Origin: an uncultured Gemmataceae bacterium
GTDB taxonomy: Bacteria > Planctomycetota > Planctomycetia > Gemmatales > Gemmataceae
Assembly (NCBI GenBank): GCA_963750165.1
Contig: CAVVPN010000011.1
Location: 608,001 to 672,000 of the forward strand
Direction: 5' to 3'
DNA: 64,000 bases
In this document: positions 48,960-60,920 of the stretch, one piece after another
How the letters are laid out: the number at the start of each line of letters is the position of its first letter
Position numbering within the stretch: position 1 is the first letter of the stretch
Program-made: the position numbers and the translations under genes
Notes under the pieces: model-generated
Databases searched by the model: none
What the model was told of the DNA's origin: nothing
The model's input: the letters and a program-made list of their open reading frames with translations, nothing else

Positions 48960-49044
48960 TTTGTCTCCCCTTCCCCGACCGGATCGCGGAACTGGGGCGC
49001 GGCACGCACTGGTTGCTCGGATTCCAACAACACCGGGAGGCCGT

Positions 49045-50574
49045 ATGAGGACGCAGACGCGGGCGCGATTCGGGGCGGCGGCGCTGGTGACGGTGCTGAT
49101 CGGGTTCGGCTCGGGACGGGTGTGCGGGCAGGAGCCCAGGCCGTTGCCGGCGGCGGTGACGGCCGCCTGGCAAAAGGCCGGCGCCGAGGTCGGCTGGACG
49201 AGGTCGGATAAATCCAGGGTACGACTGCTGTTTCGTCTCGGCAGGGCCGGGAAGGCTGGGGAGGTGCCGGCCTTCCGGTTCTCAGCGTGGCAGGGCGGCA
49301 TCCTCGCCAAACTGCCGCGGCCGGAGACCCCGTTTGGCTTGGACTTCGGCTCCACGAAGGTGGCGGACGCGGGGTTGAAGGAGCTGGCCGCGCTCCAGCA
49401 ACTGCAGGCGCTGAACCTTGGCTTCACGCAGGTGACGGACGCGGGGCTGAAGGAGTTGGCCGCGCTCAAGCGACTGCAGGCGCTGAACCTCGGCTTCACG
49501 CAGGTGGCGGACGCGGGGCTGAAGGAGCTGGCCGCGCTCAAGCAACTGCAGTTGCTGGGCCTCGGCGGCACGCAGGTGACGGATGCGGGTCTGAAGGAGT
49601 TGGCCGCTCTCAAGCAACTGCAAACACTGGACCTCAACGGCACGGAGGTGACGGACACGGGTCTGAAGGAGCTGGCCGCGCTCAAGCAACTCCAGTCGCT
49701 GGACCTCGGCTTAACGAAGGTGACGGACGCGGGGCTGAAGGAACTGGCCGCGCTCCAGCAGCTGCAGTCGCTGGCCCTCGGCTTAACGAAGGTGACGGAC
49801 ACGGGTCTGAAGGAACTGGCCGCGCTCAAGCAACTGCAGTCGCTGGCCCTCAACGGCACGGAGGTGACGGACACGGGTCTGAAGGAACTGGCCGCGCTCC
49901 AGCAACTGCAGGCGCTGAACCTCGGCTTCACGCAGGTGGCGGACGCGGGGCTGAAGGAGCTGGCCGCGCTCAAGCAACTGCAGTTGCTGGGCCTCGGCGG
50001 CACGCAGGTGACGGATGCGGGTCTGAAGGAACTGGCTTCGCTCAAGCAACTGCAAACACTGGTCCTCAGCAGCACGCAAGTGACGGACGCGGGGCTGAAG
50101 GAACTGGCTTCGCTCAAGCAACTGCGGTCGTTGTACCTCTACAACACCAAGGTAACGGACGCGGGTCTGAAGGAACTGGCCGCTCTCAAGCAACTGCGGT
50201 CGTTGTACCTCTACAACACCAAGGTAACGGACGCGGGGCTGAAGGAGCTGGCCGCCCTCAAGCAACTGCAGACACTGGACCTCAACGGCACGAAGGTGAC
50301 GGACGCGGGGCTGAAGGAGCTGGCCGCCCTCAAGCAACTGCGGTCGTTGTACCTCTACAACACCAAGGTAACGGACGCGGGGCTGAAGGAGCTGGCCGCG
50401 CTCAAGCAACTGCAAACACTGGTCCTCAGCAGCACGCAAGTGACGGACGCGGGGCTGAAGGAGCTGGCCGCGCTCCAGCAACTGCAATCGCTGAACCTTT
50501 TCAACACGAAGGTGACGGACGCGGGCGTAGCCCAGCTACGGAAGGCGCTGCCAAGCCTTGACATCCTCCGCTAA
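49045..50574 (+). CDS. Exported LRR protein, 16 near-identical 24-aa (72-bp) repeats + cap
   Basis: GGAGG RBS; TxVTDAGLKELAALKQLxxLxLxx repeats. Confidence 0.93.
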   Translation: MRTQTRARFGAAALVTVLIGFGSGRVCGQEPRPLPAAVTAAWQKAGAEVGWTRSDKSRVRLLFRLGRAGKAGEVPAFRFSAWQGGILAKLPRPETPFGLDFGSTKVADAGLKELAALQQLQALNLGFTQVTDAGLKELAALKRLQALNLGFTQVADAGLKELAALKQLQLLGLGGTQVTDAGLKELAALKQLQTLDLNGTEVTDTGLKELAALKQLQSLDLGLTKVTDAGLKELAALQQLQSLALGLTKVTDTGLKELAALKQLQSLALNGTEVTDTGLKELAALQQLQALNLGFTQVADAGLKELAALKQLQLLGLGGTQVTDAGLKELASLKQLQTLVLSSTQVTDAGLKELASLKQLRSLYLYNTKVTDAGLKELAALKQLRSLYLYNTKVTDAGLKELAALKQLQTLDLNGTKVTDAGLKELAALKQLRSLYLYNTKVTDAGLKELAALKQLQTLVLSSTQVTDAGLKELAALQQLQSLNLFNTKVTDAGVAQLRKALPSLDILR

Positions 50575-50638
50575 TTGGTTCGATAGCGACCGGCCAAGCG
50601 CTCCAGCGCTGTTGATGCCGCGACGGCCACGACACCTC

Positions 50639-50846
50639 CGGCTGGCGCGAGTGCTTCCAGCCGGAGGTGTGGTGGCAGACGTTCGCGGACCTGGACATTG
50701 GTGTGGAGTGGTACGCGCACCGGGCGCGGCCAATGACGGAGGTGCTGCCGTGGGACCACGTCAACGTCAAGAAGGGGCGGCAGTATCTGGAGAAGGAGCA
50801 GACGCGCAGCCTGCACCAGCTGGAGGTCATGGCGGAGGCGACGTGA
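50639..50846 (+). repeat. Copy 2 of the radical SAM gene 3' end (208 bp, no indels)
   Basis: Aligns to 47673-47880 with 14 mismatches by hand count. Confidence 0.97.
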
Positions 50847-50877
50847 CGCCGTGCATTCGAGAGACGGGGGAGCACAC

Positions 50878-51114
50878 ATGAATCGCTTGGTGGTGAAATC
50901 CAGAGTGAGCAGCGATGGCGTCTTGCACCTGGCGCTGCCGGTGGGTCTAGAGGCGGCGGACCAGGAGGTCCAGGTTACGGTGGAGACGGTCCCGGGTGCG
51001 CCGCTCTCCCGAGAGCAATGGCGGGCCTGGGTCCAGTCGATGGCCGGCGCCTGGCAGGGAGACTTTGAGCGACCGCCGCAGGGCGAGTACGAGGCGCGGG
51101 AGCCGCTATCGTGA
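50878..51114 (+). CDS. Putative VapB-type antitoxin
   Basis: 78 aa; GTGA-coupled to PIN gene; ERPPQGEYEAREPL C-terminus. Confidence 0.78.
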   Translation: MNRLVVKSRVSSDGVLHLALPVGLEAADQEVQVTVETVPGAPLSREQWRAWVQSMAGAWQGDFERPPQGEYEAREPLS

Positions 51115-51515
51115 AATACCTTCTGGACTCGAACGCCTGGATCGGCTGGCTCCGCCAGAGCCAGCCGAATCTCGTGCGCCGCATCCAGCAGGAACAGCCA
51201 GCGGACATCGCCCTTTGTTCGGTGGTATTGGGGGAGTTGCTTTACGGTGCCCGGCACAGCGGGGCGGCACACCAGGCCAACAATTTGGCCCTGGTTGCCG
51301 CATTGCGTCAGCAGTTCGTCTCAGTCCCCTTCGACGACCGGGCTGCCGAGGAGTACGGCAAGGTTCGGGAACACCTCGCCGGACTGGGAACGCTGATCGG
51401 GCCGAATGACCTTCTGATTGCGGCGATTGTCCTGGCCAACGGCTTGACCCTGGTGACCAACAACACCAGCGAATTCAGCCGGGTGCCAGGGCTGCCGCTG
51501 GAAGATTGGCAATAA
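51111..51515 (+). CDS. vapC: VapC PIN-domain toxin
   Basis: YLLDSN, GELLYGA, IGPNDLLIAA, LVTNNTSEFSRV. Confidence 0.93.
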   Translation: MKYLLDSNAWIGWLRQSQPNLVRRIQQEQPADIALCSVVLGELLYGARHSGAAHQANNLALVAALRQQFVSVPFDDRAAEEYGKVREHLAGLGTLIGPNDLLIAAIVLANGLTLVTNNTSEFSRVPGLPLEDWQ

Positions 51516-51618
51516 TTGCGCCGTCGCGGCTGTGGGCAGACCGATGACAACCTGGAGTGGATGCTGGATCGGGATTCCACACCCCCAGGTGCTACAGCGG
51601 CGCAAACGGTCGCTTGGG

Positions 51619-51700
51619 GTCAAGATGGGCCGACAATATCTTGCAGAAGGAGCCGACGCGCAGCTTGCACCAGCAGGAGGTCATGGCGGCGGCGACGTGA
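51619..51700 (+). repeat. Copy 3 of the radical SAM gene 3' end (82 bp, one insertion, most decayed)
   Basis: GTCAAGATGGGCCGACAATATCTTGCAGAAGGAGCCGACGCGCAGCTTGCACCAGCAGGAGGTCATGGCGGCGGCGACGTGA vs 47800-47880. Confidence 0.93.
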
Positions 51701-51716
51701 GGACCGGGAGGTGCCG

Positions 51717-52604
51717 ATGATTCTGGGCATCGATCCCAAGGTCGATTACGCCTTCAAGCATCTGCTGGGCCGCGAGTCCACGCGCGACCTGTTGATCGAC
51801 GTGATCGACCGGGTACTGAACGCCGCGCCGGGCCACCAGATTCAAGAACTGGAACTGCTCAACCCGTTCAACCCAAAGGAGACGCTGGACGACAAGCTGT
51901 CGATCCTGGACGTCAAGGCGCGCGACCAGTCCGGCCGGCAGTTCAACGTCGAAATGCAAATGCTCGCCCACCGGCACTACGAGAAGCGCATCCTGTACTA
52001 CGCCTGCAAATTGCACCAGCAACAACTGCACGAGGGCCAGGATTACCTGGAGCTGCGGCCGACCATTTCGATCAGCTTCCTGGACCACGTGCTGTTCCCG
52101 CAGGCGCCGGACTATCACCTGCACTTTCGGCTGCAGGACGAGGCGCACCACGTCGTTCTGTCGGAAGACATCGAATTTCACCTGCTGGAATTGCCGAAAT
52201 TTACAAAGTCGGCGGCGGAGCTGACAACGGACCTGGACCGCTGGCTGTATTTACTGCGCCACGCCGCCAACGTGGACACAGACGCGGTGCCCGCGCCGCT
52301 GCAGCGGCCGCTAATTTTGCGGGCTTTGGAGGAACTGAAAGTGTTGACGCAATCTGACCTGGAGCGCGAGCGCTACGAGGCGCGGCGCAAGTGGCAGCTG
52401 GACTACAACACGGGCCTGAAGGTGGCCCGCATGGAAGGCCTCGAAGAGGGCGAACAGATCGGCCGAATTCAGCTGTGCGAGCAGTTGCTGCAACGGCCGG
52501 TGACGCCGCGCGAGCAACTGGCAGCGCTGACACTGGCGGACTTGACGCGCCTGGCGGCTGATTTACAAACCCAGGTGTTGCAGCAGCGCAACCCCACGAG
52601 TTGA
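51717..52604 (+). CDS. Rpn-family PD-(D/E)XK nuclease (recombination-promoting nuclease/putative transposase)
   Basis: DPKVDYAFK, SILDVKA, NVEMQ, RILYY, LELPKF, WLYLL, EGLEEG. Confidence 0.92.
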   Translation: MILGIDPKVDYAFKHLLGRESTRDLLIDVIDRVLNAAPGHQIQELELLNPFNPKETLDDKLSILDVKARDQSGRQFNVEMQMLAHRHYEKRILYYACKLHQQQLHEGQDYLELRPTISISFLDHVLFPQAPDYHLHFRLQDEAHHVVLSEDIEFHLLELPKFTKSAAELTTDLDRWLYLLRHAANVDTDAVPAPLQRPLILRALEELKVLTQSDLERERYEARRKWQLDYNTGLKVARMEGLEEGEQIGRIQLCEQLLQRPVTPREQLAALTLADLTRLAADLQTQVLQQRNPTS

Positions 52605-58352: not shown

Positions 58353-58614
58353 CGCGGTCACTCGGGTCAGGGATGGCGAGGGTGTCGGCCCCGGCATTCT
58401 AGAGCGTTTCGCGTCCAGGTGTAGCGGTCTGGTGTTGAGCCCCGCAGCGGCGACAGCCAATCGCCAGGGCCGTCAGGCCCTGGAACGCAACGGGGGGCGC
58501 GGCCGCGGACTCCGCGAAAAATGTGCTACGATGCTTGCGAGCGGTAAATTCGTCGGTTATTTAATACACCTGTCACCACAAAATCACCAACCACCCCTTC
58601 CAGGAGGCACCGCG

Positions 58615-60064
58615 ATGGCGACCGTGAAAGCGTGGAAAGTCGGCGACAACAGCGCGCACCGCTTTCCCGGACGACTTTGAGATTGTCAAGAAAGCGGTCC
58701 TGCAAGTTACCGATATCAAGACCAACCACAACAAGTATTACGCCATCGAGCTGCACAAGGGCACCATCAAGGGCAAGACCCTTTTCCGCATCTACACGCA
58801 CTACGGCCGCACCGACGACCTGGAAACCAACCCCGACGCCGGCCAGAAAGAGTGCCGTTACTTCGACACCGTCGGCGAGGCGGACGCCAACTACCAGTCC
58901 ATTTACCGCGAGAAAACCGGGCCGCGCAAGGGCTATCGGGAGGTGGCGCTGGCGTCGAGCAAGATCGGCTCGCAGAAGGCACGCGGCACCAGCACCGGCG
59001 AGGTCGATGAGAAGACGCTGCAGCGCATCGCCGCCACGCAGAACGGCGGCGCCGCCCCGGCCGCGGTCGTCAAGCAGAGCAGTCTCGATCCGGGCGTGCA
59101 GCGCCTGGTGCGCTACATCTACGACGAGGCCACCAGCGCCCTGACCAGCACCGTCGCCGCCAAGATCACCGCCCAGGGCATTGAGACGCCGCTCGGCGTG
59201 TTGACCCTCGGACAGATCGACAAGGGCGATAAAATCCTGGCGGAAATGTACGACATCTTTGAGAAGAAGCCCAAGGGCTACCAGGCGAAGTTGGAAGCGC
59301 TGACGGGCGATTTTTACTCCGCCATCCCGCACCGCATTGGCCGCACCCGCGCCGCCATCGCCAGCTCCGTCATCGACAACCTGACCGCCTTCGAGCAGAA
59401 GCAATCGACGCTGCAACTCATGAAGGACATGTTGCAGGTCAATGGCGAGGGCGGCAGCGTCCTGTTCGACGCCAGGATCGACACCGAGTACGAGGCGCTG
59501 AAGTGCAACATCGGCTACCTCGATCCCAAGTTGTCGGAATACAAGGAACTCGCCGACCACGTTGTCAAGAGCCAGGTCAAGTCGAAGAGCATCAAGGTGC
59601 AGCACATCTACACGCTGAAGCGGCCCGACGAGTGGACGGCCTTTACCGAGCAGATGGACAACCACAAACTGCTGTTCCACGGCTCGCGCATTCAGAACTG
59701 GGTGGGCATCCTGTCGCGCGGCATCCTGCTGCCGAAGATCGTCGTGAGCATGGGCGTCAACCGCACGGACGCCGGCTGGCTGGGTCACGGCATCTACTTC
59801 GGCGACGCTGCCTGCACCAGCTTCTTTTACGCGACGCCCGGCCGCCACAAGACGCGCATGATCGCCATCGCGCGGGTCGCCCTCGGCAAGAAAAAGGAAT
59901 ACACCAAGATCACCTACGGTCTGAACAAGCCGCCCGATGGTTTCGACAGCTGCCACGGCGTCCGCAACAAGCCGGGCAAGCCGTCGGAGTTTGCTGACGA
60001 CGAGTATGTCATCTACACCAACCAGCAGCAGCGTCTTGAGTATTTGGTCGAAGTCACGGGGTAA
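58615..60064 (+). CDS. Poly(ADP-ribose) polymerase-like protein: WGR + PARP regulatory + catalytic domain (+1 frameshift ~58669)
   Basis: AGGAGG RBS; NHNKYYAIEL..YGR..KGY (WGR); PLGVL..FYSAIPH (regulatory); LLFHGS, GHGIYFG, DEYVIY (H-Y-E). Confidence 0.93.
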
Positions 60065-60177
60065 AATCCGAATACCGAATGTCGAAATCCGAAACAAATT
60101 CAAAATCCGAAGAGGAAAATTCAAAACGAAGAACCCGACACGCTGTTTCGGATTTCGGATTTCGAGATTCGAATTTG
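60064..60177. repeat. Heptamer (AAATCCG/TTTCGGA) inverted tandem repeat
   Basis: AAATCCGAATACCGAATGTCGAAATCCGAAAC...GTTTCGGATTTCGGATTTCGAGATTCG. Confidence 0.8.
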
Positions 60178-60194
60178 TTCTTGGGAGGAAAGCC

Positions 60195-60920
60195 ATGTTT
60201 GTACACGTGATCCTGGTGGATGTCAACAAGAAGATGGTCGATGCCTGGCGTTCCGTCTTCGAGGAAAACCCCGAAGTTGAGATCGTCCACGGCTCGATAC
60301 TGGATCAACCGGTCAGCGCCTGGGTGTCGCCGACCAACTCCAAGGGCAGCATGGATGGCGGCCTCGACGCCATCATCAAGAAGCACCTCGGCAGCAAGAT
60401 CGAGACGCGGCTGCAAAAGGAAATCCAGCTGCGCTACGGCGGCAACCTGCCGGTGGGCCACGCCATTAGCACGCCGACTGATCGGCCGCAGCCGCGTTAC
60501 CTGATTTCGACGCCGACCATGCGCACCTCGTCGGAGGACATCAGCGACACGCTCAACGTGGCGCTGGCGTGCGCCGCGGCGTTCCAGGCGGTCCACATCC
60601 AGAACCAGCAAGAACCGGGCGGCATCCGCTCGGTGGCGCTGCCGGGCCTCGGCGCCCAGACGGGCCGGGTGCCGGTGGAGATCTGCGCCGACCTGATGTG
60701 GACCGGCTACAATCTGTTCCGCGATGCCGAATTCCGCGACTTCGCCTCCGTCCGCGCCGCGCTGGAGGAGCAACTCGGCGATCTGGGGCCGACCAGCAAG
60801 AGCGCCAAGAAGAAGCTCACGGTGCCCAAGGGAATTGAGAAGCCCATGCCCCTGCCGCCCGAGCCGGCGCCCAAGCCGTCGAAAAAGGGACCGGACGTGG
60901 ATTTTGACGACTACGAGTAA
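60195..60920 (+). CDS. Macrodomain (ADP-ribose binding/hydrolase) protein
   Basis: GGAGG RBS; HGSI, VSPTNSKGSMDGGLD, TPTM, ALPGLGAQTG. Confidence 0.92.
   Translation: MFVHVILVDVNKKMVDAWRSVFEENPEVEIVHGSILDQPVSAWVSPTNSKGSMDGGLDAIIKKHLGSKIETRLQKEIQLRYGGNLPVGHAISTPTDRPQPRYLISTPTMRTSSEDISDTLNVALACAAAFQAVHIQNQQEPGGIRSVALPGLGAQTGRVPVEICADLMWTGYNLFRDAEFRDFASVRAALEEQLGDLGPTSKSAKKKLTVPKGIEKPMPLPPEPAPKPSKKGPDVDFDDYE

Follow-up and report, generated by a model that had tools for sequence, protein, structure and literature searches.

The stretch analysed here (the window) comprises 64,000 nucleotides of contig C11 of an uncultured Gemmataceae genome (G000; 9.6 Mb in 12 contigs, 93% complete). Near its end a PARP gene is followed by a gene for a macrodomain protein, and in most relatives these two genes form the head of a type XIII retron operon with the overall order [ARH]-PARP-Macro-HEAT/WGR-SWIM-ncRNA-RT, in which ncRNA is a structured non-coding RNA and RT the reverse transcriptase. 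Gene order, co-occurrence, congruent trees, intact catalytic motifs and a PARP4-type fold support the view that the pair and the retron very probably act together in some way. We propose that the two proteins constitute a retron-gated mono-ADP-ribosylation effector with its erasers, in a subfamily of type XIII retrons, a reading to which we assign a probability of about 0.5. The first-pass annotation, made from the letters of the window, had described a writer/eraser pair; the pairing has held, whereas the two-gene module has given way to the retron operon. This link lay beyond the reach of the window alone, because the HEAT, SWIM, ncRNA and RT of this genome lie outside it, on contig C3.

Pfam profile searches bore out the WGR, helical, catalytic and Macro domains named in that annotation (for the PARP, WGR E 4e-9, PARP_reg 2e-16 and PARP 2e-28), and its H, Y and E residues lie in the motifs FHGS, GIYF and DDEY. 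The macrodomain gene is co-oriented and has its own ribosome-binding site 130 bp on, as described. The enzyme is the only PF00644 match in the host genome. Its proposed likeness to PARP3 and to the Herpetosiphon aurantiacus enzyme was not upheld. Among PDB entries, human PARP4 matches best (E 3.8e-43), followed by PARP3 and PARP2 (1.6e-22) and PARP1 (1.5e-18), and trees separate the protein from PARP1 and PARP3. A second myxobacterial PARP, used as a control, gave the reverse result, with E 1e-111 to PARP3 and 2e-17 to PARP4. A predicted model of the intact homologue P0009 (predicted local distance difference test, pLDDT, 93) matched the PARP4 catalytic domain with a template-modelling (TM) score of 0.86 and a root-mean-square deviation of 2.7 Å, as against TM scores of 0.67-0.73 for the catalytic domains of PARP1/2/3 on their own; full-length PARP1/2 chains, which contain WGR, reach a similar rank to PARP4 by E-value through their greater coverage of the model. 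A first model, built on few aligned sequences, was of low quality (pLDDT 64) and was set aside.

In a 32-row tree of the helical and ART domains, seven bacterial rows of the family (support 94/96) grouped with protist and animal PARP4-type rows, and this PARP4-type side was split with 100/100 support from 14 clade-1 rows, which included PARP1/PARP3 and PARP3-like myxobacterial enzymes; the tree rows did not include the H. aurantiacus enzyme (HaPARP). The PARP4 grouping of the catalytic region received 99 in the Shimodaira-Hasegawa-like approximate likelihood ratio test (SH-aLRT) in a 57-row tree, from which two outgroup rows present in the smaller tree had been lost in domain cutting. The bacterial group nested weakly (80/83) beside one protist sequence, monophyly of the eukaryotic sequences was not rejected by the approximately unbiased test (p-AU 0.505), and transfer between bacteria and eukaryotes may have gone either way. 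The family is large: of 7999 scored proteins, 847 belong to it at E 1e-10. A search for names for 10 unnamed distant homologues gave none that was informative.

Like human PARP4 and eukaryotic clade 5, the family has the D-loop sequence, the acceptor T and D, a short loop and a single long helix in the helical domain (HD), and PARP4 too resides in a particle with a small ncRNA. It differs in that BRCT (the RNA-binding part of PARP4), VIT and vWA are absent, the catalytic domain is C-terminal and the host is bacterial. Since the window PARP has no BRCT, VIT/vWA or mid-protein catalytic domain (Pfam shows only WGR, PARP_reg and PARP), we assign it to a clade-5-like catalytic lineage and do not call it a PARP4 orthologue by architecture. 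A search for the major vault protein gave no match in five genomes, with the positive control also silent. With clade-1 PARPs (H. aurantiacus, C. difficile CD160, human PARP3) it shares the WGR-helical-ART order, the H-Y-E triad and YGR replacing WGR; the bacterial clade-1 enzymes belong to another clade and are polymer makers according to the available text of PMC8120803, whereas the window PARP is predicted to be mono-only. Many Myxococcota genomes with the system (L121, L122, L125, L123, L126, L128) carry one or two further PARPs, one PARP3-like and one a divergent WGR-PARP.

The H-Y-E triad is invariant in 54 family sequences. In the available text of Frigon and Pascal (PMC10711553), the residues T484 and D545, together with a short loop, account for the mono-only activity of PARP4, and an unbroken HD helix accounts for its open active site; our acceptor-site criteria (T for PARP1 K903, an acidic residue at D545, a short H826 loop) follow this source. 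The T and D were present in 48 of 48 scored homologues, the H826-type loop is short, with no gap against PARP4 in the loop alignment, and the helical domain of the P0009 model contains a single 20-residue helix, like the unbroken HD helix of PARP4. The family enzyme is thus predicted to be capable of mono-ADP-ribosylation only, and basal activity is expected from its open helical domain.

A scan of species genomes yielded 61 PARP loci, mostly from Planctomycetota and Myxococcota. Conservation of the pairing, on which the first-pass annotation had staked its proposal, was evident: a macrodomain gene lies directly 3' of PARP in 56 of them, and two of the misses are contig ends inside PARP. Among the 59 loci with enough flank, three are without a macrodomain; in L113 two genes intervene. 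The architecture is PARP-Macro-HEAT-SWIM in 28 loci, the same with ARH in front in 6, PARP-Macro-HEAT cut by a contig end in 4, PARP-Macro only in 18 and PARP only in 5, so that HEAT directly follows the pair in 38 of 61. Clustering of open reading frames (ORFs) placed an ARH gene upstream of PARP in eight loci, co-oriented in seven. PADLOC calls the downstream genes WGR_XIII/HEAT-ARM_XIII (E 5e-107 for WGR), SWIM_XIII (1e-182) and RT_XIII (2e-166, the top among 54 PADLOC matches). The search for the retron covered the genomes of 50 of the 61 loci: of 28 genomes with adjacent HEAT, 26 have RT on the contig and strand of PARP, about 7 kb downstream of the PARP start, and in the remaining two the genes are divided between contigs; the same SWIM subclade (58-77% identity) occurs elsewhere in 14 of 22 genomes without adjacent HEAT, a few of which are short contigs. 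The whole order PARP-Macro-HEAT-SWIM-ncRNA-RT was found in 27 of 42 fetched loci. The known type XIII retrons (Retron-Mxa1/Mx162, Mxa2/Mx65, Sau1/Sa163, Nex2/Ne144) likewise combine WGR-like/HEAT-ARM, SWIM, a structured ncRNA and RT; here PARP and macrodomain are added in front, with ARH in some loci and a fused DNA ligase in a few.

Co-occurrence was evaluated in a control of 401 genomes of the class, in which PARP is present in 14, some SWIM_XIII in 99 and the close SWIM subclade (at least 54% identity; next value 47%) in nine. All nine also carry PARP, and the subclade is present in none of the 387 PARP-less genomes; we give no p-value, because the search started from the SWIM of a PARP-linked locus and related genomes do not count as independent. 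Tree distances of PARP and RT are correlated (r 0.74 over 34 genomes and 0.95 when only the 11 split ones are taken), as are those of SWIM and RT (0.88).

In the genome studied, PARP-Macro on C11 and the retron core on C3 are not one physical operon. The PARP, HEAT, SWIM and RT are each nearest to those of G012, which has the whole operon, and because of this shared nearest relative and the PARP-RT distance correlation the pair in the window has most likely come off the front of the operon on C3. The HEAT and SWIM genes there carry one frameshift each, and the RT has YADD, NAxxH and VTG, the motifs of retron RTs, at 230, 338 and 386. Of 42 fetched loci, 40 have an ncRNA in the interval from SWIM to RT. 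Its ends are long inverted repeats, its 5' hairpin is conserved, and in its long stem the sequence varies freely while the pairing is kept. Folding of one copy gave a z of -8.8, and 38 of 50 predicted pairs showed compensatory change among 25 copies; the ncRNA was judged by these features, and Rfam returned only sub-threshold matches to miRNA-type hairpins. Four tandem copies stand at G000:C3:795513-796598 (L075:12514-13599), with a common scaffold and four different stems; L078 and L089 have two copies and the other loci one. A second, more distant type XIII retron is encoded on the minus strand at G000:C11:2.295-2.305 Mb (L076:7702-17363), with a 2134-aa HEAT-ARM protein, SWIM and RT and no PARP homologue nearby.

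The macrodomain protein has N48, G55, G56, L57 and D58 invariant in 46 sequences. These fit Nx6GG[VLI]D, with the catalytic Asn and Asp, the first of two MacroD motifs in the available text of PMC8120803; the second, G[VIA][YF]G, is missing, and the family has GLGAxTGRVP in its place. NCBIfam MacroD/YmdB models scored far under their cut-offs, and the PADLOC match to DarG reached only E 0.002, so that the protein counts neither as DarG nor as a complete MacroD. The best PDB match of the family profile is weak (1njr, E 8.5e-8) and nearly tied with a macroH2A-like domain (9.8e-8). We take 1njr to be yeast YMR087W/Ymx7, an ADP-ribose-1''-phosphate phosphatase. The tail is Pro/Lys-rich and ends in a conserved DFDD. 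A hydrolase role is plausible.

In other retrons a complex of RT with multicopy single-stranded DNA (msDNA) restrains an effector, and some of these effectors consume NAD+. A PARP with an open active site would need such restraint; the RT-msDNA complex would gate it, and the macrodomain (and ARH) would reset the mark. In the present genome the ancestral operon would have been split in two, and the halves would work in trans.

Several observations weigh against this proposal. The retron subclade is lacking in 8 of the 22 genomes without adjacent HEAT and in 5 of the 14 PARP genomes of the class sample (some incomplete in both sets), while 90 of the 99 SWIM-bearing genomes have a type XIII retron without this PARP. 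Shared descent would also give congruent trees, and related genomes do not count as independent. PADLOC gave 11 matches among 85 upstream flank proteins, mostly generic kinase, helicase or partial matches; as only one (BrxC/SspC) is a clear defence gene, the system is not a resident of defence islands. Four viral contigs (L215-L218, three distinct loci; AT-rich, up to 459 kb) encode the PARP (51-58% identity), accompanied neither by a retron gene within 8 kb nor by a nearby macrodomain homologue. The system of this genome, lastly, holds three frameshifts (PARP, HEAT, SWIM) in about 7.7 kb, where the background is about one per 11-12 kb (Poisson tail for three shifts about 0.03).

The viral PARPs form one subclade with two retron-less bacterial copies. 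L218 also has an ARH near the PARP, and one of its ORFs resembles, by eye, a nicotinate phosphoribosyltransferase.

The first-pass annotation had read the PARP as a continuous protein of about 482 residues. The frame from ATG 58615 in fact ends in TGA after 21 residues, having resembled homologues for about 14 codons, and the remainder of the coding region lies in the +1 frame and is free of in-frame stops. A single extra base near codon 15 is indicated, because homologues have the same N-terminus in one frame. The public gene call (P0010) gives only a 373-aa product from which WGR is missing. Among control genes of the host genome that were matched by proteins of relatives, 10 of 117 also change frame (13 of 120 were flagged, and three false flags, two tandem paralogues and one antisense of the SWIM gene, were dropped), which makes an assembly error the simplest cause. 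The sole listed public read run contains 6% of the sequence words; its contigs stem mostly from other organisms, and depth at the shift is low. No RNA run was listed. We consider that the three frameshifts are probably errors of assembly and not signs of decay.

That this copy is a recent pseudogene, with real shifts in PARP, HEAT and SWIM, is unlikely. The clustering of the shifts and the split of the operon would suit such decay, and a broken PARP copy does exist in G017; against it stand the shifts in unrelated control genes, the intact catalytic motifs and stop-free frame, and a PARP end branch of 0.24, compared with 0.13-0.22 for the nearest tree rows. Least likely is programmed +1 frameshifting at CTT-TGA (58675-58680), a sequence that we take to resemble the prfB frameshift site. 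The homologue residues AFPDDF are already in the +1 frame 5' of CTT-TGA, and among the homologue N-termini compared only that of L064 is shifted in this region, at a different position, and the L064 record is frameshifted at several further points. The G017 copy (L079:7642-9791) is a decayed one: its PARP has in-frame stops, the neighbouring macrodomain gene is oppositely oriented, and the genome lacks the retron subclade. In Tautonia sociabilis (L050 / L095) the whole operon is present and the PARP is frameshifted near its C-terminus.

Fusions bring in an end-processing or repair role, in which the PARP would mono-ADP-ribosylate phosphates at the ends of DNA or RNA (those of msDNA, or at nicks) and thereby protect them or activate them for ligation, the macrodomain would uncap them, and the retron would be domesticated for handling DNA breaks and not for defence. 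Five proteins fuse a SWIM-DNA ligase, of the ATP-dependent type, to this PARP (two are labelled Acidobacteriota); in L135:10001-19442, the sole fusion locus fetched, SWIM-DNA ligase-WGR-PARP is followed by Macro, HEAT, SWIM, ncRNA and RT, a whole retron operon. Distant clade-5-like PARPs are fused to RNA-ligase, uracil-DNA glycosylase (UDG) or BRCT domains, and the UDG and RNA-ligase fusions suggest nucleic-acid repair as a theme of the clade. The available text of PMC5843604 reports ATP-free ligation in vitro of DNA with an ADP-ribosylated 5'-phosphate, and that of PMC8120803 reports cleavage by MacroD/TARG1 of ADP-ribose-phosphate esters at nucleic-acid ends. The absence of a defence-island context and the vertical inheritance suggested for type XIII in the available text of Mestre et al. 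2020 (PMC7736814) point the same way. Ligase fusion is nonetheless rare (5 of 45 longer hits), only L135 held retron genes among 80 loci from the ligase query (many of them short), modification of DNA ends has been shown for PARP3 and not PARP4, and no DNA-damage regulatory motif was seen by eye upstream of the PARP gene. We regard this role as doubtful.

By eye, a UDG-like ORF lies about 1 kb after RT in L135. The present genome has a free-standing homologue (61%) of the fusion's SWIM-DNA ligase part at G000:C12:909340-910341. The UDG or RNA-ligase fusions of distant PARPs are P0147, P0148, P0193, P0204, P0209 and P0261.

It appears quite improbable that the two genes are an independent writer/eraser pair which signals DNA breaks and only happens to travel with the retron. 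The PARP-Macro link is indeed the closer one (56 of 61 loci, against 38 of 61 for PARP-HEAT), the window shows the pair on its own and with host-like codons, retron-less PARPs arise several times on the tree (six changes), and the PARP-RT correlation of 0.74 is below the 0.88 of SWIM-RT. Yet co-occurrence outlasts the split of the operon (14 of 22 genomes; this genome; G227), the retron subclade always comes with PARP (9 of 9), and several retron-less PARPs sit on long end branches. Still less credible is a DarTG-like toxin-antitoxin system, with a PARP toxic on its own and the macrodomain as antitoxin: the two genes are adjacent and co-oriented and a PARP4-type open helical domain predicts basal activity (PMC10711553, available text), but neither a DarT-type toxin nor a DarG-type antitoxin is recognised in the pair (the PARP has no PADLOC match and the macrodomain only the DarG match given above), the macrodomain is missing or set apart in the loci already mentioned, and the phage PARPs lack it nearby.

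Features of the pair and of the retron half are listed in Table 1.

Table 1. Coordinates of the PARP-macrodomain locus (window positions) and of the retron half on contig C3.
Feature	Position	Strand	Basis and remarks
PARP ribosome-binding site AGGAGG	58602..58607	+	sequence; 7 nt 5' of ATG 58615
True PARP start ATG 58615, short frame to TGA 58678-58680	58615..58680	+	frame comparison with homologues
One-base frameshift site, about codons 14-16	58654..58662	+	both frames against homologue N-termini
Main PARP frame (P0001, 478 codons open)	58628..60064	+	Pfam, structure and tree comparisons; PARP4/clade-5 type
WGR	about 58691-58945	+	Pfam
Helical domain	about 59078-59431	+	Pfam
ART	about 59537 to end	+	Pfam
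Catalytic residues of PARP	H 59678, Y 59795, E 60002	+	motifs FHGS 59675, GIYF 59789, DDEY 59996
Intergenic inverted repeat, 33-nt arms, 82% complementary	60064..60176	.	repeat search; BLAST, single site in this genome
Macrodomain ribosome-binding site GGGAGG	60183..60188	+	sequence
Macrodomain gene (P0002, 241 aa)	60195..60920	+	ORF; Pfam Macro E 1e-12; 130 bp after PARP stop
HEAT, SWIM, four ncRNAs, unrelated ORF, RT	G000:C3:791-799 kb (L075:8234-16451), outside window		homology, PADLOC

The surroundings of the pair agree with their first description: upstream of PARP lies a divergent purB-like lyase (TIGR00928, 260 bits against a cut-off of 326) and on the other side a convergent hybrid histidine kinase, and codon usage of the PARP and macrodomain genes is host-like (at the 81st and 56th percentile, respectively, among 2334 long ORFs of the host). 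That description did not include the inverted repeat between the genes. On the + strand, its second arm was picked up as a terminator-like stem as well; a dispersed element was ruled out by the single BLAST site. A promoter scan found none that reached threshold, and terminator-like sites numbered 4 against 2.8 in shuffles. A short CTACGATSCTTG-like motif, seen by eye at 58522-58541 of the window before a TTG-type -35 box, recurs upstream of PARP in the planctomycete loci L062, L069 and L074, and myxobacterial loci show a related TA(C/T)GTC...TTGCG pattern there, also by eye. At 48961-52604 of the window, 6-10 kb 5' of PARP, are a leucine-rich-repeat protein, a small ORF paired with a PIN-domain gene, and a PD-(D/E)XK Rpn-type gene.

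In the available text of Citarelli 2010 and Perina 2014 (PMC2964712, PMC4245714), clade 5 is limited to animals and Amoebozoa and most bacterial PARPs are clade-1-like, and that of Garcia-Saura 2018 has no occurrence of Planctomyc or Myxococc. The main text of Mestre et al. 2020, whose supplement might list such neighbours, and that of a 2026 SPIRE survey have no occurrence of PARP, macro or ADP-ribos; the available text of a 2026 domain-centric defence screen has none of PARP, and that of a 2026 preprint on PARP domain swaps none of retron or PARP4. We found no report of a bacterial clade-5 PARP or of a retron-PARP pairing in the literature searched, with subscription journals largely outside its coverage.

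Clade-5 PARPs, so far animal and amoebozoan, are extended here to Planctomycetota, Myxococcota, Acidobacteriota, some genomes labelled Pseudomonadota and large phages. Type XIII, whose partner proteins have only predicted roles, includes the first retrons ever found (Mx162 and kin); according to the available text of the papers, there is scant evidence for what bacterial PARPs do, and the role of PARP4 in the vault is unclear. Tentatively, the family may represent a retron subfamily in which an msDNA ribonucleoprotein would directly control a vault-type PARP with built-in erasers. This would be an NAD+-using circuit of bacteria, for immunity or repair, and the counterpart of eukaryotic PARP4 in prokaryotes, as its source or by capture; jumbo phages would have acquired only the PARP, perhaps as a countermeasure. 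A compact operon that joins a PARP4-like enzyme, erasers and a retron offers a testable lead to the roles of both retron type XIII and this PARP lineage.

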